Shown here one piece after another: positions 2,484 to 64,000 of a DNA stretch of 64,000 nucleotides (positions are counted from its first letter, which is position 1; each line of letters begins with the position of its first letter). The notes beneath the pieces were generated by a model that was not told where the DNA came from, ran no database searches, and saw only the letters and a list, made by a program, of their open reading frames with translations. Origin of the DNA: an uncultured Bdellovibrionales bacterium (GTDB lineage: Bacteria; Patescibacteriota; Minisyncoccia; Moranbacterales; UBA1568); the NCBI GenBank assembly GCA_964624415.1, contig CAZUWR010000001.1:3855-67854 (forward strand), read 5' to 3'. The position numbers were made by a program, and so were the translations under genes.

Positions 2484-3032
2484 GTGAAAAAATGTGTGAG
2501 AGGAATGCTGATACTTTTGGCATCAGTAAGTTTGATCGGATGTTTTCCGCCGTATGATTTTGAACGCTCGGCCATCGAGAGTTCAAGCCGTTTCGATAAC
2601 AGCTTGATAGTAGATGATTTGGAACGCGAAGCGATGGAGAAGCAAGCTGGTGAAGCGATCATTTATCGCAACGGTGAGTTTGCTTATCAAGTCACACCAT
2701 TGCAAATGCGGTATGACAATCGCACGGGCAAAGTGTGTCGCGATTACCAGACCGATGTCATCTTCCGTGGCGATCAAAAATCCGCAAGGAAAACAGCTTG
2801 CAAGTATAGCGGGCAGTGGTATATCGTCAGTATCGATGGAAGATCCACGATACAGTCACGACCACGGTATGCTGTTGTGCAGAATTGGTATATGAATTAC
2901 GGCTCTCCGGGATTCGGTGTACCGGCATGGGCGCAGGGTTTCGGGTATGTCAGTCCGATGTTCGGCCCCATGTTCGGCGGATATCCCCGTACCGGTTTTG
3001 GAGGCGGGGTATATTTTAACGGACGATGGTGA
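2484..3032 (+). CDS. putative lipoprotein, Gly/Phe-rich C-terminus
   Basis: GTG at 2484 lies 5 nt after AAGGAGG (2472-2478). The signal peptide ends in a lipobox-like LIGC. The upstream ORF-track start at 2430 has no RBS. Confidence 0.6.
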   Translation: MKKCVRGMLILLASVSLIGCFPPYDFERSAIESSSRFDNSLIVDDLEREAMEKQAGEAIIYRNGEFAYQVTPLQMRYDNRTGKVCRDYQTDVIFRGDQKSARKTACKYSGQWYIVSIDGRSTIQSRPRYAVVQNWYMNYGSPGFGVPAWAQGFGYVSPMFGPMFGGYPRTGFGGGVYFNGRW

Positions 3033-3192
3033 AGTATATGAGGCGTTTGGATGGAGTGATATTTGCACAAGCAAGTACGCTTTCATTCCAAACGCTTTTT
3101 TCTTTGGCAAAAAACACGCTGTCGTGCGCAAACAAAGTCTTCTACCGATATATATGCTATACTATGACCGTAATATGTTAAGGAGATAATGT

Positions 3193-4458
3193 ATGTCAAA
3201 GGTACAGACGATTGTAGGACGAGAGATCCTTGATTCACGAGGGAACCCGACCGTGGAAGTGGCAGTAACACTGGAAAGCGGCGTGTCCGCGGTGGCGATG
3301 GTGCCCTCCGGAGCCTCGACCGGCGAGTGGGAGGCAGTGGAGCTGCGTGATGGTGATGCCAAACGCTATGGCGGCAAGGGTGTTTTGAACGCCGTGAAGA
3401 ATGTGAATACGGAATTGGCGCAAGCGGTTATCGGTATGGACGCTTCCGAACAACGAGCGATCGATGAGGCGATGATTGCCGTGGATGGAACGGAAAATAA
3501 AGGACGATTGGGTGCTAACGCCATCTTGGGTGTTTCTTTGGCCGTGGCTCGCGCACATGCCCTCGATTCCAAACAAACCCTGTATACCCATATCAATACG
3601 CTGCTGGCAAATGAGAGCAAAGTTGCTTTGCCGGTGCCGATGTTTAATGTCCTCAATGGCGGTATGCACAGTGACTCCGGTCTTGCGATTCAGGAATTTA
3701 AGATTGTGCCGATCGGTATCAAGCCGTACGCTGAGCAGTTGCGTGCCGGGAGCGAAATCTTTCATGCGCTGAAAAAAATCCTCGAAAAGGACGGTTTTGT
3801 AACCAGTGTGGGCGATGAAGGCGGATTCGCGCCAAGACTCCAGAGCAATGCGCAGGCCTTCGAAGTCATCATCCAGGCTATCAAAGCGGCCGGTTATGAG
3901 CCGGGCACACAGGTGGCGCTCGGCATCGATGCAGCAGCCAGCTCTTTTTACAACGATACCGAAGATCAGTATGTGCTCAAGCCCGAAGGTGTGAATATGT
4001 CTCGTGAGAGTCTGATCGCAATGTATCGTGAGTGGATGAGTAAGTACTTCATCATTTCCATCGAGGATGGTCTGCACGAGAATGACTGGGAAGGCTGGGC
4101 TACGATGAAGGAGAAACTGGAGAAGGAAAATGCCGACATAATGCTTATCGGTGATGATCTACTCGTGACCAATCCGAAACGTTTGGCCCGTGCTATCGAG
4201 GAGAAGTCTTGCAATGCGGTGCTTATCAAGCTCAATCAGATCGGTACGCTGAGCGAAACACTTGAGTGTATCCGTATGGCCCAAGCGAACAACTATCGCG
4301 TGGTGGTGTCGCATCGCTCCGGTGAGACAACGGATGATTTTATCGCCGATCTGGCCGCAGGTACCGGCGCCGGCTTCATCAAAACCGGATCGCTGTCCCG
4401 AGGAGAGCGCCTGGCGAAGTACAATCGCTTGCTCGCGATCGAAACGGAAATCGCGTAA
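3193..4458 (+). CDS. eno: enolase
   Basis: 421 aa with SRGNPTVEV, SHRSGETTD and IKTGSLSRGERLAKYNRLL motifs. AAGGAG lies upstream. Confidence 0.95.
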   Translation: MSKVQTIVGREILDSRGNPTVEVAVTLESGVSAVAMVPSGASTGEWEAVELRDGDAKRYGGKGVLNAVKNVNTELAQAVIGMDASEQRAIDEAMIAVDGTENKGRLGANAILGVSLAVARAHALDSKQTLYTHINTLLANESKVALPVPMFNVLNGGMHSDSGLAIQEFKIVPIGIKPYAEQLRAGSEIFHALKKILEKDGFVTSVGDEGGFAPRLQSNAQAFEVIIQAIKAAGYEPGTQVALGIDAAASSFYNDTEDQYVLKPEGVNMSRESLIAMYREWMSKYFIISIEDGLHENDWEGWATMKEKLEKENADIMLIGDDLLVTNPKRLARAIEEKSCNAVLIKLNQIGTLSETLECIRMAQANNYRVVVSHRSGETTDDFIADLAAGTGAGFIKTGSLSRGERLAKYNRLLAIETEIA

Positions 4459-41552: not shown

Positions 41553-41609
41553 TTTATAGAATCATAGTGTTTATGGTTTGTTGGTGTTTACACACAAGGA
41601 TATTGTTGT

Positions 41610-41680
41610 TGGGGAGGAAGGGATCGAACCTTCGCATGGGGGCTTCAAAGGCCCCTGCCTTACCGCTTGGCTACTCCCCA
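41610..41680 (-). tRNA. tRNA-Gln (anticodon UUG), CCA not encoded
   Basis: The reverse complement reads TGGGGAG-TA-GCCAAGCGGTAAGGCA-G-GGGGC-CTTTGAA-GCCCC-CATGC-GAAGG-TTCGATC-CCTTC-CTCCCCA. It has a 7-bp acceptor stem, a GGTTCGATCC T-arm and the anticodon loop CU-UUG-AA. Confidence 0.9.
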
Positions 41681-41707: not shown

Positions 41708-41734
41708 GATCCTTCGACTACGCTCAGGATGACA
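41708..41734 (+). repeat. GTCATCC...GGATC palindromic element, half copy
   Basis: GATCCTTCGACTACGCTCAGGATGACA is identical to 59188-59214. It is intergenic, between dnaX and tRNA-Gln. Confidence 0.65.
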
Positions 41735-41843
41735 ATCATGAGTTTTTTGTAAATATTCAGAGAAGAGACTCTGAAACGACCTGCCCGAAATGCAACGCAT
41801 AACTTTGCAGGCGGGGTTCAGAATAACATCCTCATTTCAAAAA

Positions 41844-51642: not shown

Positions 51643-51702
51643 TGTCATACTGAGCGTAGTCGACCGCGTGTCGCCTTTAGCTTTAGCGGTGGCACAAGGA
51701 TC
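51643..51702 (+). repeat. GTCATCC...GGATC-family element, opposite orientation, interrupted
   Basis: TGTCATACTGAGCGTAGTCGA, then 32 nt, then AAGGATC. It lies downstream of rplA. Confidence 0.5.
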
Positions 51703-51748
51703 TTAAGTTGATAGAAGATGTCAAAATGAATTCGGCATGACAGACAAG

Positions 51749-58789: not shown

Positions 58790-59779
58790 TTAGAAGAAGA
58801 TCTCTGTTTCCGAGGCAGCCTCTATCCAGTGGATATCAGCGCCCTGTTTTTCCCATCGGCGCAGCCAAGTGCGCTGTCTTTTGGCATAGTGGACGATGTC
58901 GAAGAAAAGTTTTTCTTTCATTGTCGGTTCGTCGATGTTTCCCTGCAAGAAGCGAGCTATCCATCGGTATTCAAGACCGAAGGCCTCCAGTTTTTCCCAT
59001 GCCGCGCCATGCTCGTGGAGGCGCCGCACTTCTTCGATCATGCCCTGATCGAAGCGTTCGTCCAGGCGTTTTCGTATATTCGCATCCAGGATGTCTTTTG
59101 GAGGATTGAACGCGATAATGAAATAGTTGCTTTGATTGATATATTGAGGTTTGGGATGTGTCATTCCGATCGTAGCGGAGGAATCCGAGATCCTTCGACT
59201 ACGCTCAGGATGACATATCATGGGGTTGCTCTGCAGTGAAGGGACTTTTCCAAGTGATTGTACGATTTCCAGAGCCCGGATAAGCCGGATGGGATTGTTT
59301 CTATCGATAGTTAGGGCTCTTTCCGGATCGATGGCTTGCAGTTTTGCAAAGAGTTCTTGGATAGAAAGGTGCGAAAGTTCTTTGCGCAGTATGAGATCGG
59401 GCAAGACCTCCGGGAAGGATTGGTTATCGATGAGCGCCTGCGCCCAAAAAAGCGTACCTCCGCAGAGGATGGGGAGTTTGCCGCGGCTTCGGATGTCTCG
59501 GATGATTGCTTGGGCATCACATTTGAAGTCCGTGACATTGTACTCCTCGTGCGGCTCGCGAATATCGAGGAGGTGATGCTGAGCGAGCGACTGCTCTTCG
59601 GTAGTCACCTTACCCGTCCCGATATCCATTCCGCAGTACACCTGTCGGCTGTCGGCTGAAATAATCTCGCCATCGTATTTGAGGGCCAGTGAAATTGCCA
59701 AAGAAGACTTGCCCGAGGCTGTCGGCCCGACGATGGCAAGGGTTTGTGATCTGTCGAATTTTCTTGACGTATGATTCAT
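58790..59779 (-). CDS. miaA: tRNA dimethylallyltransferase, carrying an in-frame 57-nt palindromic element
   Basis: P-loop GPTASGKSS, SADSRQVY, GGTLFW and RLIRALEI motifs. The segment CHPERSRRISDSSATIGMT is encoded by the repeat at 59158-59214. Confidence 0.9.
   Translation of the reverse strand: MNHTSRKFDRSQTLAIVGPTASGKSSLAISLALKYDGEIISADSRQVYCGMDIGTGKVTTEEQSLAQHHLLDIREPHEEYNVTDFKCDAQAIIRDIRSRGKLPILCGGTLFWAQALIDNQSFPEVLPDLILRKELSHLSIQELFAKLQAIDPERALTIDRNNPIRLIRALEIVQSLGKVPSLQSNPMICHPERSRRISDSSATIGMTHPKPQYINQSNYFIIAFNPPKDILDANIRKRLDERFDQGMIEEVRRLHEHGAAWEKLEAFGLEYRWIARFLQGNIDEPTMKEKLFFDIVHYAKRQRTWLRRWEKQGADIHWIEAASETEIFF
59158..59214 (+). repeat. 57-nt palindromic element (two inverted GTCATYC...GGAWTC arms) inside miaA
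   Basis: TGTCATTCCGATCGTAGCGGAGGAATC-CGA-GATCCTTCGACTACGCTCAGGATGACA. Its length is divisible by 3 and the reading frame is preserved. Confidence 0.7.
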
Positions 59780-61476: not shown

Positions 61477-64000
61477 CTACTCCACACTGGCAACTCCGGC
61501 AATATCCGCGAGTTGTTTTTTTGTATCTTCGGTCGCTTCGATGGTGTGCGGGGTGTGTATGGTGGCGCCCTGGACGCGGACATAGACGGGCGTCTCGCCC
61601 TTGGGGAGACGGGCGAGGGTAGCGGAGACGGTTTCGAGGAGCTGTTTGCTTACAGCGCTGTCTTGGAGAGTGATGGTGAGGCGGAGATTTTTACCGGATC
61701 CCGCATCAAGTACGGGATGACTTAGATGATGTTGTCCGTTGGTTGTTGGTTGTTGATTGTTGACTGTCTGTGGTTCGTTTTTCGCTCGTGTCAAGAGGAC
61801 TCGCTTGAAAGTCTCGACGGACTGCAAATCGACTTTCTCGGCATCCTCGGCGAGTATTTTTGGGACGCCGTCTTCATTGGAAAGTCTGCCCTGCACGATG
61901 ACGAGTTCGTCTTCTATCCACATACCGCCGGTTTTTTCTACAGCGCGCGGGAAGACGAGCACTTCGACGCGCCCGGTCAGGTCTTCGAGGCTGACGAAAA
62001 ACATTTCTTGCTGGCGTTTGGTGTAGGTTTTGCGCACGGTGCTGATGACACCGCCCACTTTGACGCTGATACCGCTCTCTCGCTTTTCCAAATCATGAAT
62101 CGGAATGGTAATCTGATCGAAGTATTCCTTGAAATCGCTGACCGGATGATCGCTGACATAGAGGCCGAGGAGTTCCTTTTCCCACTTGAGCTTTTGTTTT
62201 TTCTCGATAGGTGGCACGTTTTCGAGGCGTAGCTCGGAGGTTTCGATCGGCATGCTTCCGAAGAGGCTGTCGGTGTGAGTTTCTTTTATCTTCTGCAGAT
62301 TGCGGGAGTGTTTGAGGATTTTGTCGATGCTGGCAAGGAGCTGACTGCGCTCGCCGAAAGCATCGAGGGCGCCCACTTTTGAGAGAGCTTCGAGGGATTT
62401 CTTGTTGAGGTCTTTGGTCTGGACACGCTCGACGAAATCGGCGATGGAGCGGAACTTTCCACCGCGCTTGCGCTCTTTGACGATTTCTTCAGCAGCTACT
62501 TTGCCGACGTTTTTGATGGCATTGAGTCCGAAGCGGATACGCTCTTTTCCTTCGGCATCCGGGACAACGGCAAATTCCTCGAAGCTTTCATTGACATCCG
62601 GTGGCAAGACCTCGATGCCCATCTCGCGGCATTCATTGACCTCGATAGCGATGCGATCCGTCGTGTCCTGGTCGGAGGTGAGGAGGGCGGCCATAAAGGA
62701 TGCCGGGTAATGTGCTTTAAGGTAGGCGGTCTGATAGCCGATGAGCGCATAGCAGGCAGCGTGCGAACGGTTGAAACCATATCCGGCGAACGGTTCGATA
62801 AACGCGAAGACTCCCTCGGCTATATCTTTGCTGATGCCTTGCTCACCGCAACGCGCCACGAATTTGATGCGCTGCTCTTGAATGAGCTCGAGGATTTTTT
62901 TGCCCATCGCTTTGCGAAGCACATCGGCTTCGCCGAGGGTGAAGCCGGCCAGGTCGCGGGCGATTTGCATCACTTGCTCCTGATAGACGGCCACGCCATA
63001 GGTAGTGGCGAGTATCGGTTCAAGTTTCGGGTGCAGGTACTTCACGGTTTTGCGTCCGTGTTTGCCATCGATAAAATCAGGGATCCAGTCCATCGGTCCC
63101 GGACGGTAGAGGGCGACCATAGCGATGATGTCTTCGAGGACGGTCGGCTTAAGCTGGCGCAGGTAGCGCTTCATACCATTGCTTTCCAGCTGGAAGACGC
63201 CGGTCGTGTGGGCCTTTTGGAGTAGCTCATAGGTTTTTTCGTCATCGATAGGGAGGCGATCCATAATGTCGGAAATGGAAGCGGTCTTCGGGTCAAGGCC
63301 GATACGGATGATGAGTTCGTCGAGTTTGCCCAATGCGCGGATGATGCGGATGGTGTTTTGCATGATGGTGAGGTTTTTGAGTCCCAAAAAGTCCATCTTG
63401 AGCAAGCCGATCTTTTCCACGGCGCTGAATTTGGTGGAGGAAGCATACTGTGTCACGGTGCCTTCTCGTGTGCCGGAGATTTTTTGGATGGGGGTGTATT
63501 CGGTGACCGGGTCTTTGGTGATCACCACGCCGCAGGCATGCATCGAGGCATGGCGCGCGAGACCTTCGAGGTTTTTGGCCACGTCGATGAGCTTGCGCGC
63601 TTCCGGATCCGCATCGTAGAGTTTTTTGAAATCCACCGCTTCTTCGAGCGCTTTTTTCATCGTGGAAAACATCGGGATGAGTTTGGCGACTTGATCGCAG
63701 AGCGCATACGAATAGCCCAGTGCACGACCCGTGTCGCGGATAGCCGCGCGCGCCGCCATTGTTCCGAAGGTGATGATCTGTGCGACGTGATCGTGGCCGT
63801 ATTTTTCGCGGACATAGTTGAGCACATCATCGCGACGATCATCGGCGAAGTCCATATCGACATCGGGCATCGAGATACGTTCCGGATTGAGGAATCGCTC
63901 GAAGAGGAGATCGTATTCGATTGGATCCATGTTGGTGATACCGGTGAGGTAGGCGACGAAACTTCCCGCCGCCGAGCCGCGTCCCGGCCCCACCATGATC
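61477..64000 (-). CDS. dnaE: DNA polymerase III alpha subunit (5'-truncated by window edge)
   Basis: GPGRGSAAGS, MPDVDMDF, FNRSHAACYA and HhH/OB regions. The C-terminal extension contains repeat-derived NNQQPTTN and SHPVLDAGSGK. Confidence 0.9.
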   Translation of the reverse strand, partial: IMVGPGRGSAAGSFVAYLTGITNMDPIEYDLLFERFLNPERISMPDVDMDFADDRRDDVLNYVREKYGHDHVAQIITFGTMAARAAIRDTGRALGYSYALCDQVAKLIPMFSTMKKALEEAVDFKKLYDADPEARKLIDVAKNLEGLARHASMHACGVVITKDPVTEYTPIQKISGTREGTVTQYASSTKFSAVEKIGLLKMDFLGLKNLTIMQNTIRIIRALGKLDELIIRIGLDPKTASISDIMDRLPIDDEKTYELLQKAHTTGVFQLESNGMKRYLRQLKPTVLEDIIAMVALYRPGPMDWIPDFIDGKHGRKTVKYLHPKLEPILATTYGVAVYQEQVMQIARDLAGFTLGEADVLRKAMGKKILELIQEQRIKFVARCGEQGISKDIAEGVFAFIEPFAGYGFNRSHAACYALIGYQTAYLKAHYPASFMAALLTSDQDTTDRIAIEVNECREMGIEVLPPDVNESFEEFAVVPDAEGKERIRFGLNAIKNVGKVAAEEIVKERKRGGKFRSIADFVERVQTKDLNKKSLEALSKVGALDAFGERSQLLASIDKILKHSRNLQKIKETHTDSLFGSMPIETSELRLENVPPIEKKQKLKWEKELLGLYVSDHPVSDFKEYFDQITIPIHDLEKRESGISVKVGGVISTVRKTYTKRQQEMFFVSLEDLTGRVEVLVFPRAVEKTGGMWIEDELVIVQGRLSNEDGVPKILAEDAEKVDLQSVETFKRVLLTRAKNEPQTVNNQQPTTNGQHHLSHPVLDAGSGKNLRLTITLQDSAVSKQLLETVSATLARLPKGETPVYVRVQGATIHTPHTIEATEDTKKQLADIAGVASVE
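61695..61720 (+). repeat. GTCATCC...GGATCC hairpin element inside dnaE
   Basis: GGATCCCGCATCAAGTACGGGATGAC has an ATCCCG/CGGGAT stem. It encodes SHPVLDAGS on the minus strand. Confidence 0.55.
61738..61767 (+). repeat. A/C-rich element in dnaE shared with dnaX
   Basis: On the coding strand, ACAGTCAACAATCAACAACCAACAACCAAC compares with ACAGTCAACAATTAACAACAAACAACAAAC in dnaX. Confidence 0.6.

Follow-up and report, generated by a model that had tools for sequence, protein, structure and literature searches.

The miaA gene of a Patescibacteriota (candidate phyla radiation) genome carries an in-frame 57-nt palindrome that is probably a gene-less, MITE-like pair of inverted hairpin units, derived from a GIY-YIG (Ssn-type) cassette and landed without harm in the disordered linker that joins the swinging domain of MiaA to its core. 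The analysis covered a 64,000-nt stretch of contig CAZUWR010000001.1 (assembly GCA_964624415.1), referred to as the window, and the coordinates of all features are collected in Table 1. The MiaA ORF had 7998 homologs with PF01715/PF01745, and the invariant catalytic columns were retained in its product (alignment A1). An initial annotation of this DNA had reported an element of 57 nt, or 19 codons, that keeps the frame and encodes CHPERSRRISDSSATIGMT after the RALEI helix; all of this was seen in the 329-aa ORF, in which the element was also free of stop codons. The sequence at 59159-59215, TGTCATTCCGATCGTAGCGGAGGAATC-CGA-GATCCTTCGACTACGCTCAGGATGACA, is an imperfect palindrome, and the position given previously (59158-59214) was thus one base off. 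What had been described as two inverted arms of one motif are inverted copies of a 26-nt GTCAT-hairpin-ATC unit. The label "essential" had been attached to miaA without evidence; the gene is dispensable in E. coli.

Table 1. Coordinates of miaA, its insertion and the further repeat units of the window.
Feature	Position	Strand	Remark
miaA CDS, insertion host	58790..59779	-	ORF, 329 aa, intact
57-nt composite, T-(unit A)-TCG-(inverted unit B)-A on the coding strand	59159..59215	-	residues 189-207
Unit B (left arm of the initial annotation), GTCATTCCGATCGTAGCGGAGGAATC, inverted relative to unit A	59160..59185	+	canonical form GTCATTCCGACCGTAGCGGAGGAATC
Spacer between the inverted units, 3 nt	59186..59188	.	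occupies the place of the GIY-YIG gene in full cassettes
Unit A (right arm of the initial annotation), GTCATCCTGAGCGTAGTCGAAGGATC, sense orientation of miaA	59189..59214	-	exact copy at 41708
Solo unit, same as unit A, intergenic	41708..41733	-	28 nt upstream of tRNA-Gln
tRNA-Gln	41608-41680	-	neighbour of the solo unit
Degenerate long-loop unit, GTTAT-TCTGAAC...GTTTCAGA-G	41769..41827	-	second repeat family nested inside
Long-loop unit downstream of rplA, GTCATACTGAGCGTAGTCGA-(32-nt nested hairpin)-AAGGATC	51644..51702	+	
Single unit GTCATCCCGTACTTGATGCGGGATC in the dnaE C-terminal linker, in frame	61697..61721	-	peptide SHPVLDAGSG

Alignment with orthologs identified the 19-aa segment as an insertion. 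In a syntenic relative (L002), in which the dnaE-miaA-gatB-rplA order is conserved, the MiaA site was empty (PITKN followed directly by HHTDNTD, versus PSLQSNPMI-19 aa-HPKPQYINQSN in the window), and the insert was likewise missing from the homologs P0003 and P0005 to P0012 and from most close homologs; filled and empty linkers differ too strongly from one another for the insertion boundaries to be placed with single-base precision. With the gene intact and in frame and the syntenic site empty, the earlier view of an insertion without disruption of miaA was borne out. The solved MiaA structure of B. halodurans (2QGN) showed 18 gap columns across the insert, and the linker measured 49 aa compared to a modal length of 21-25 aa in 112 relatives, in agreement with the longer linker, relative to E. 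coli MiaA, that the annotation had proposed. Of the excess length, 19 aa are the element, and the few other residues reflect the usual variation of the linker. No homologous peptide was found without the repeat, and the repeat itself was found elsewhere, in hundreds of genomes and metagenomes. An independent ENA assembly (L001) contained the element at the same codon with 3 substitutions in 57 nt, and therefore the element is not an assembly artefact. The AF2 model of MiaA had a mean pLDDT of 84, and values below 50 were limited to residues 1-3 and 182-215, the latter being the sole low-confidence internal segment; the insert was predicted to be disordered (pLDDT, 36-44). Different unit pairs occupied the same linker, in frame, in the MiaA proteins of L123, L125 and L126, those of L123 and L126 being decayed versions, and a second MiaA linker site was occupied in frame in L001 and L126. 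The insertions examined at the DNA level were in frame and stop-free in 6/6 cases. In-frame units were also present within PolA, AlaRS and UvrD of other lineages. We propose that the miaA element survives because it is in frame, stop-free and structurally harmless.

Each 26-nt unit runs from GTCAT through a stem of 5 bp and an apical mini-hairpin to ATC. Its parts are a GTC box that lies single-stranded on the 5′ side, a basal stem of 5 bp (AT-YCY/RGR-AT), the apical GAGCGTAGYCGA, which we read as tandem G·A pairs with a C(GTA)G triloop, and a 3′ C; GTCAT units are also named by the types CCTGAGCGTAG and TCCGACCGTAG. The inverted arms of the miaA element are 26-31 nt in length, and the inverted repeat reaches approximately 4 nt beyond the element on each side (GATGT.../...ATATC, with one mismatch). 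Unit B was found in its canonical form GTCATTCCGACCGTAGCGGAGGAATC in L001 and 73 metagenome stretches; the copy in the window has a C>T exchange relative to this form, resulting in a T·G wobble. The 57-mer folded into one long hairpin with -28.6 kcal/mol as RNA in a 93-nt context (z = -3.9) and -13.1 kcal/mol as DNA (z = -3.4), a value equalled by 0/200 shuffles. Nearest-neighbour folding of unit A alone gave -1.5 kcal/mol (z = 0), which was no better than shuffles, and the putative hairpin of a single unit rests on covariation, not on predicted energy. Among the matches listed, which comprised 127 copies, pair 6-23 was C-G in 79, T-A in 47, T·G in 1 and C·A in 0 copies, and pair 8-21 was C-G in 88, T-A in 38, T·G in 1 and C·A in 0 copies (Fisher p ~1e-31 to 1e-34); the search pattern had allowed every base combination at the tested stem pairs. 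Pair 11-18 was swapped between the two subfamilies (G-C versus C-G), and the base at position -1 was T or C in 96% of the copies. This conservation shows an oriented unit composed of a 5′ GTC(A/T)Y box and a hairpin with maintained pairing, as is required of an Ssn-related motif (SRM), a family to which the NTS/dRS3 repeats of Neisseria belong.

The repeat family was not restricted to the candidate phyla radiation. The degenerate 26-nt pattern was detected at no fewer than 120 loci (at least 15 phyla) in species-representative genomes, and the exact 26-mer of unit A was a common variant, accounting for 14 of the 127 copies among the matches listed, across phyla. Gene-less unit pairs are common: the end of an inverted partner lay within 120 nt of 56/194 units, compared to 2 in shuffles. 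About 70% of the units had no recognisable partner within this distance, and a truncated unit started 20-26 nt upstream of 18/194 units. The exact composite of units A and B, 3 nt apart, was present in 0/75 metagenome copies of unit B; this composite was found in miaA of the window lineage only and is not itself a multi-copy MITE. Viral contigs yielded only 10 matches in 2.9 million, and phage carriage is therefore no major feature of the family. Within the window, the 27-nt right arm had one further exact copy (0 expected from 100 shuffles), namely, the intergenic match at 41708-41734 that had already been noticed. The degenerate arm pattern occurred at 3 places only (0 expected), and in-frame units within conserved genes made up 3 of the approximately 6 units of the window.

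The GTCAT units were linked to GIY-YIG genes by their genomic surroundings. Among the 120 loci listed, 5 had a PF01541 GIY-YIG ORF of ~95 aa located 6-59 nt from the unit, and each of the candidate-phyla GIY-YIG genes that were examined (4/4; L201, L203, L205 and L207) had an inverted GTCAT unit on either side. The resulting layout, [GTCAT-unit>]-gene-[<unit-ATGAC], was also present in L088 and corresponds to the NTS-ssnA-NTS arrangement (PMC11893778). The cassette of L203 displayed perfect 26-nt terminal repeats (GTCATTCCGAGCGAAGCCGAGGAATC), one of them 9 nt and the other 1 nt away from the ORF, and the two end units of the L201, L205 and L207 cassettes were non-identical. The cassette protein, a putative member of the Ssn clade (CDD cd10448, GIY-YIG_unchar_3), matched PF01541 (E = 5e-17), with UPF0213 proteins as the nearest solved structures. 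A search by regular expression and a home-made HMM revealed no GIY-YIG gene in the 64-kb window or in the miaA loci of the relatives (L001, L002 and L123-L127). In the proposed origin of the miaA element, the parent would be a GIY-YIG gene of ~95 aa between a unit pair, of which the miaA copy would have kept the ends and a 3-nt spacer. A cognate nuclease, located elsewhere in the genome or formerly present, may have spread the pair via single-stranded DNA. The insert would then be translated as a neutral surface loop, as the conservation of the frame suggests, and its low nucleotide divergence could reflect hairpin constraint or homogenisation by other copies.

We know of no demonstration that hairpins are mobilised by Ssn enzymes. 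These GIY-YIG enzymes act on single-stranded DNA, in which they bind such hairpins and the adjoining 5′ flank and cut close by; sequence-specific binding and cleavage are known for the Neisseria and Wolbachia enzymes only, and the effects reported for Ssn are limited to cleavage and an influence on transformation (Chenal et al. 2025, PMC11893778, who described the NTS-ssnA-NTS layout). The units of miaA resemble SRM/NTS repeats in the 5′ (C/T)GTCAT box, the short hairpin and the ATC tail (NTS consensus, CGTCATTCCCGCGMAVGCGGGAATCYRG), and in their dispersed, cross-phylum distribution; units of their class, in inverted orientation, enclose a small single-domain GIY-YIG gene in other candidate-phyla loci. 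They differ in the stem (AT-YCY/RGR-AT with the apical GAGCGTAGYCGA, compared to a GC-rich perfect stem in SRMs) and in location, since NTS are reported to lie rarely within genes (2% in N. meningitidis), whereas half of the roughly 6 units here are in frame. Further differences are that no ssn gene is present in the 64-kb window and that PMC11893778 does not mention candidate-phyla bacteria. Neither miaA arm matched the published SRM pattern HGTCWY-N(0-2)-YYVSBRH-N(0-5)-WNVSBRG-N(0-2)-RNCYNB because the stem CCT/TCC is followed by GA; the dnaE unit (61694-61722) fits the published strict SRM pattern. The published motif appears too narrow, as it misses a very widespread GAGCGTAG-type subfamily in at least 15 phyla.

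Other repeat systems were compared with the miaA element. The Rickettsia palindromic elements (RPEs; Ogata et al. 2000, 2002, as reviewed in PMC10969869) are likewise palindromes that lie in frame in unrelated conserved genes and are translated into an extra peptide at a fold-compatible position. The miaA palindrome lies in frame in a conserved gene whose orthologs are without it, and, in the AF2 model, the insert appears to sit in a loop that is compatible with the fold, both as required of an RPE. It is set apart by length and host, since RPEs are Rickettsia-specific families of ~100-150 bp with no identified mobilising enzyme, whereas the miaA element comprises 57 nt, occurs in candidate phyla and consists of two 26-nt units that are common to many phyla and have the GIY-YIG cassette as parent architecture. 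Classical bacterial MITEs are non-autonomous derivatives of insertion sequences. With MITEs, such as the Correia elements, the miaA element shares terminal inverted repeats, small size, the lack of coding capacity and ends in common with a gene-carrying parent; however, this parent encodes a GIY-YIG nuclease instead of a DDE transposase, and the structured hairpin termini also occur singly. RAYTs are IS200/IS605-like Y1 transposases, and REPs are extragenic by definition. The REP/BIME-RAYT system is similar in that its repeats are hairpins with a short, conserved box of single-stranded DNA at the 5′ side and are often arranged as inverted pairs; they flank a domesticated nuclease gene with chemistry presumed to act on single-stranded DNA. 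The box is GTCAT here and GTAG there, and the enzyme is GIY-YIG (PF01541) instead of an HUH Y1 transposase. Identity with REP/RAYT was rejected on the grounds of the GTCAT box, the intragenic copies and the adjoining GIY-YIG gene. Of the former designation "REP/MITE-like," the dispersed repeat and the MITE-type ends were retained; the REP assignment was dropped in favour of self-contained GTCAT-hairpin-ATC units. A target-site duplication, for which a check had been suggested, was not evident at the miaA element, where the flanks (T...A) are palindromic and no exact excision footprint marks the boundaries, nor was one seen at most pairs; the 3-nt flank match observed in 2/4 cassettes (AGT and AAT) is not general. 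We found no published description of a miaA-type insertion, the nearest literature being the Ssn paper (PMC11893778) and the RPE reviews.

Sequence divergence bears on the question of why the element is kept. A comparison of the window with L001 gave a difference of 5.3% (3/57 nt) within the element versus 19.2% in the remainder of miaA (P = 0.0026), and of 10.5% versus 35% at third-codon positions, figures that compare two sequences only. All three differences concern family-variable or wobble-compatible positions, and the linker residues flanking the insert are among the most diverged of the protein. These data would be consistent with a domesticated cis-element that is kept for a locus function of its DNA or RNA structure, either as an Ssn-type cleavage site limiting the recombination of incoming single-stranded DNA, a role that has been proposed for the NTS of Neisseria, which modulate transformation (PMC11893778), or as an mRNA hairpin for translation or stability. 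However, we consider such a function unlikely, as gene conversion from other genomic copies or a later re-insertion would leave identical traces, the element is missing from close relatives, and the decayed versions in L123 and L126 are expected of neutral passengers. The descent of the pair from a single cassette has also to be weighed against a separate arrival of the arms as two solo units in opposite orientation, for example, if units insert beside units. The arms belong to different subfamilies, solo units are present at 41708 and in dnaE, most units stand without a near partner, and the truncated starts upstream of other units suggest unit-adjacent events. This scenario is nevertheless improbable: the non-identical ends of three of the cassettes mean that gene loss should yield heterogeneous pairs, a single event is more parsimonious than two independent in-frame insertions at a distance of 3 nt, and both arms are found in L001, with no intermediate state.

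A selected addition to MiaA, in which the 19 residues would contact tRNA or a partner and the palindrome would be incidental, could be envisaged from the preserved frame and from the position of the insert, a hinge that follows the swinging (insertion) domain, which in E. coli MiaA moves on tRNA binding. We regard this as very improbable, since the peptide is predicted to be disordered and is absent from most relatives, unrelated peptides derived from other unit types occupy the same linker, identical DNA occurs in non-coding sequence, and the motif is conserved at the DNA level in all reading frames and across phyla. Repeats can cause mis-assembly, an a priori possibility that, together with chance and with a removable intron- or intein-like sequence, we judge to be next to negligible. 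Chance is opposed by the expectation of 0 matches, and a chimera is opposed by the insert in the independent L001 assembly with its three substitutions. An Rfam search of the whole window at gathering thresholds returned the tRNA-Gln only and no family at the miaA insert, which argues against an intron; a spliced element need not be in frame and stop-free, as 6/6 insertions were, and 19 aa are far too short for an intein.

In-frame palindromes have been known mainly from Rickettsia, without a known mobilising enzyme. The miaA case ties one of them to the ends of GIY-YIG cassettes and thereby indicates a candidate enzyme, namely, an Ssn-type nuclease with single-stranded DNA as its substrate. 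It would also extend the Ssn hairpin family to the candidate phyla radiation and to coding sequence. As a tentative generalisation, GTCAT-hairpin pairs might be non-autonomous miniatures of GIY-YIG (Ssn-type) cassettes that are themselves mobile via single-stranded DNA. They would thus be a general, cross-phylum source of protein-coding palindromes, which have settled time and again in the disordered linkers of housekeeping proteins (in the candidate phyla radiation, MiaA and DnaE; elsewhere, PolA, AlaRS and UvrD). Their nucleotide sequence would then be constrained even in genes, and such cassettes could represent the missing mobiliser of the Rickettsia/Wolbachia coding palindromes. Length variation at the two MiaA linkers and the DnaE C-terminal linker in these genomes results largely from GTCAT-unit elements, with consequences for alignments, phylogenies and structure prediction. 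The elements also explain many spurious "hypothetical protein" calls, recognisable by the peptides HPERS..., ...GMT and ...DDK, and their insertion points constitute natural permissive sites of the host enzymes for extra sequence.

The remaining units of the window displayed further variants of the family. The single dnaE unit was absent from the DnaE of L002, and the DnaE of L123 contained a different pair at the same place. The repeat downstream of rplA had been annotated as a third, interrupted copy at 51643-51702; it is indeed a copy, but instead of being interrupted it belongs to a long-loop subfamily, which was also encountered in metagenome locus L151, where this variant has a repeat of the unit-B type as its partner. 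A weak inverted partner of the rplA unit is possible at ~51717-51741. The second repeat family nested in the degenerate long-loop unit, at 41780-41815, reads CCTGCCCGAAATGC.ACGCATAAC.TTGCAGGCGGG and recurs in frame in the DnaE of L123.

The 57-nt palindromic element lies in miaA. Homologs of the miaA product number in the thousands and carry PF01715/PF01745, and those with names belong to Candidatus Moranbacteria, Patescibacteria and similar groups, which places the organism in the candidate phyla radiation. The initial annotation had quoted the element correctly and was right about its reading frame; its coordinates (59158-59214) had to be shifted one base rightward (see table). In an alignment of 28 homologs, the encoded 19-aa segment was present only in the MiaA of the window and in P0002 (82% identity) and was missing from P0003 and P0005-P0012. 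L002, the contig of P0003, shares the gene order dnaE-miaA-gatB...rplA-rplK-nusG-secE with the window, and its MiaA linker joins PITKN directly to HHTDNTD, whereas PSLQSNPMI and HPKPQYINQSN flank the 19 aa in the window. The linker usually measured 21-25 aa in 112 relatives compared to 49 aa in the window, and gaps lie opposite the insert in the alignment of the solved Bacillus halodurans MiaA (2QGN). The segment is thus an insertion, as had been proposed. An assembly artifact was ruled out, since L001 (the contig of P0002, an independent ENA assembly) carries the element at the identical codon with 3 substitutions. Judging from the homolog alignment, in which the full set of invariant catalytic columns is kept, the miaA product of the window looks functional. 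An AlphaFold2 model built on this alignment had a mean pLDDT of 84; residues 182-215, which enclose the insert (189-207), formed its sole low-confidence internal segment.

Coordinates of the genes and repeat copies in the window
Feature	Position	Strand	Remark
tRNA-Gln(UUG)	41608-41680		sole tRNA gene in the window
Solo copy of the right arm	41708-41734		exact second copy of the 27 nt
Second palindromic family	41780-41815		nested in a degenerate GTTAT unit
Copy downstream of rplA	51643-51702		
miaA	58790-59779	minus	ORF with PF01715/PF01745 homologs; 329-aa MiaA
57-nt element in miaA	59159-59215		encodes CHPERSRRISDSSATIGMT in frame, after the RALEI helix
dnaE	61477-63996		hosts a single GTCAT unit
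Single GTCAT unit GTCATCCCGTACTTGATGCGGGATC	61694-61722	minus	in frame (SHPVLDAGSG), DnaE C-terminal linker

Each arm of the element constitutes a self-contained, oriented unit of 26 nt, GTCAT-YCY-GAGCGTAGYCGA-RGR-ATC. A degenerate arm pattern, run against a single genome for each species, matched at least 120 loci, and the matches listed came from Alpha- and Gammaproteobacteria, Clostridia, Bacteroidota, Acidobacteriota, Chloroflexota, Verrucomicrobiota, Planctomycetota, Patescibacteria and Saccharibacteria, Actinomycetota, Spirochaetota, Melainabacteria, Gemmatimonadota and others. The pattern itself placed no constraint on which of the four Y/R combinations occurred at positions 6/23 and 8/21. 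Among the matches listed (127 copies), pair 6/23 was C-G in 79, T-A in 47, T·G in 1 and C·A in none (Fisher p ~1e-34); the corresponding counts for pair 8/21 were 88, 38, 1 and 0 (p ~1e-31). This covariation identifies the unit as a conserved hairpin preceded on the 5′ side by a GTC box that is single-stranded; the support is comparative rather than energetic, and the nearest-neighbour folding energy of unit A (the right arm) alone gave no signal (z = 0). The complete 57-mer folds into one long hairpin (RNA z = -3.9), with a DNA fold of -13.1 kcal/mol that 0 of 200 shuffles equalled. We infer that the apical part of the unit comprises tandem G·A pairs and a C(GTA)G triloop. Pair 11-18 is C-G in the subfamily of unit B (the left arm), whose canonical type GTCATTCCGACCGTAGCGGAGGAATC was present in 73 metagenome stretches, and G-C in the other subfamily; in the window a C>T change produces a T·G wobble, while L001 retains the canonical C. 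In 18 of 194 copies (L014, L017, L048, L049, L060, L062, L065, L081, L088, L104, L139, L159, L184 and others), the complete unit is preceded at a distance of 20-26 nt by a truncated unit start (GTCATYYYSR...), with a pyrimidine-rich stretch in between; this arrangement may have been left by cleavage, repair or nested insertion.

Among the matches listed, a GIY-YIG ORF of ~95 aa (PF01541, E = 5e-17) was located 6-59 nt from a unit in 5 of 120 genome loci. A search with the protein returned ~4000 relatives, the best from Patescibacteria, Parcubacteria, Magasanikbacteria, Doudnabacteria and Paceibacterota. Inverted units bracket the gene in all four candidate-phyla contigs examined: the L203 cassette ends in two inverted 26-nt repeats without a mismatch, GTCATTCCGAGCGAAGCCGAGGAATC, one separated from the start codon by 9 nt and the other from the stop codon by 1 nt, and unlike unit subtypes occupy the two ends in L201, L205 and L207. 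The miaA element, [GTCAT-unit>]-3 nt-[<unit-ATGAC], shows precisely this cassette layout minus the gene. Gene-less unit pairs are common; an inverted partner end lay at most 120 nt away in 56 of 194 units compared to 2 in shuffles. No GIY-YIG ORF was found in the 64-kb window or in the miaA loci of relatives. The miaA element probably consists of the two hairpin ends of a GIY-YIG cassette without the gene, which entered a disordered MiaA linker in frame and have been tolerated in it. The cassette of L201/L202 (3001-3300, a Patescibacteria genome) sits among eight small arrayed T4SS_pilin-like (PF18895) genes, reminiscent of the way in which NTS cluster near genes for surface proteins in Neisseria. 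Numerous candidate-phyla GIY-YIG homologs are known solely from contigs of ~0.5-1.5 kb, a pattern that fits a breakup of short-read assemblies at multi-copy cassettes or at the repeats flanking them.

The observation of the initial annotation was confirmed, and its interpretation as a REP/MITE-like element is supported with refinements. A REP/RAYT identity was rejected, given the 5′ GTCAT box and the neighboring GIY-YIG gene; the MITE-like part holds, the element relating to the cassette as a MITE does to its insertion sequence. The target-site duplication check revealed no consistent duplication at the miaA copy, the cassettes or the other units examined, and flanks were typically T...A. A 3-nt flank match (AGT, AAT) in 2 of 4 cassettes was not general; the L203 cassette (~2890-3350) is framed by a 17-nt direct repeat, ATAATTTGTATAAATTA, at distances of 3 nt and ~24 nt from its two ends. 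By anatomy, the element would group with the Ssn/NTS-SRM system. The NTS repeat of Neisseria reads CGTCATTCCCGCGMAVGCGGGAATCYRG, and small GIY-YIG genes (ssnA, cd10448) carry a degenerate Ssn-related motif (SRM) on their flanks and encode enzymes that cut single-stranded DNA beside the hairpin and require its 5′ flank; mobilization of hairpins by these enzymes is a hypothesis only (Chenal et al. 2025, PMC11893778). The miaA element differs in that its subfamily falls beyond the published motif, neither arm matching the strict SRM pattern (which the dnaE unit matches), and in its coding context, which is rare for NTS (2% in genes in N. meningitidis; PMC11893778). Rickettsia palindromic elements (RPEs) are likewise in-frame palindromes at fold-compatible sites of conserved genes (PMC10969869); compared to these, the miaA element is shorter, its units cross phyla and its parent architecture is identifiable. 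Our literature search found no description of such insertions in candidate-phyla bacteria or of a link between RPEs and GIY-YIG nucleases. Wolbachia reportedly contains coding palindromes as well (Ogata and colleagues). An active Ssn and SRM pair is known from Wolbachia (PMC11893778), and together these could offer a lead to an RPE-Ssn connection.

The same MiaA linker carries the unit pair TGTCATCCCGCACTTGATGCGGGATCC-25 nt-GGATCCCCGATCGAGTCGGGGATGACA in L125 and decayed pairs in L126 and L123, and a second site, after GTGKV (site 1), carries pairs in L001 and L126. At the DNA level, all 6 MiaA insertions are in frame and stop-free and read as xGT CAT CCx. Among the best 120 homologs, the linker exceeded 30 aa in ~27 of 112 and site 1 was expanded in 38 of 119, many expanded proteins containing unit-type peptides (SHPELVEGS...RRLTQNDN, CHPGLDPGS...LRGNDN, VIASEAKQS, IPAFAGMT). 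Insertion points shift by a few residues among lineages, and selection for permissive loops offers the best explanation of the hotspots. At site 1, the MiaA of L001 (962-2062) has a long 'xRD...(F/Y)LSEGI' form and a second pair, TGTCATCCTGAGCTTGTCGAAGGATC-17 nt-GATCCCTCGACTACGCTCGGGATGACA, whereas the window has a short 9-aa form despite the 82% identity, which suggests recombination within miaA between lineages. Coding insertions extend beyond the candidate phyla radiation, since in-frame units or pairs occur in PolA (L121, Bacteroidales UBA1173; between the exonuclease and polymerase regions), AlaRS (L161) and a UvrD-type helicase (L144), each with Pfam domain matches on either side, and an in-frame pair in a Verrucomicrobia helicase-like ORF (L042, outside the Pfam scan). 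Units within open frames of ≥150 codons numbered 29 of 181, an upper bound because GC-rich genomes yield spurious frames. The GatB of L002 (7747-9249; 91% identical to that of the window) contains an 11-aa insertion, SVPSEAGAKAH (GTGCCGTCCGAAGCCGGAGCGAAGGCGCAT), with no recognizable GTCAT unit in it.

The copies of the element in the window and L001 are separated by 3 substitutions in 57 nt (5.3%) compared to 19.2% in the remaining miaA (P = 0.0026), and third-codon differences amount to 10.5% versus 35%; the flanking linker residues are strongly diverged. For these two sequences, the low divergence points either to a constraint on DNA or RNA structure or to homogenization by other copies. The exact copy of the 27-nt right arm was found where the initial annotation had placed it (chance expectation, none), 28 nt upstream of tRNA-Gln(UUG), and the copy downstream of rplA proved real. 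The solo and miaA copies have a flank in common (ATGACA-ATCATG and ATGACA-T-ATCATG); the repeated segment is therefore slightly longer than 27 nt. The position of the dnaE unit is empty in the syntenic DnaE of L002, and the DnaE of L123 carries another unit pair there. The window also contains a palindromic repeat of a second family, CCTGCCCGAAATGC(A/T)ACGCATAAC(T/G)TTGCAGGCGGG. In the DnaE of L123 (aa 838-849 and C-terminal linker), this family is represented by an isolated in-frame insertion of 36 nt, PARNATHNVAGG, and by a copy nested inside a unit, PARNASHNDAGG.
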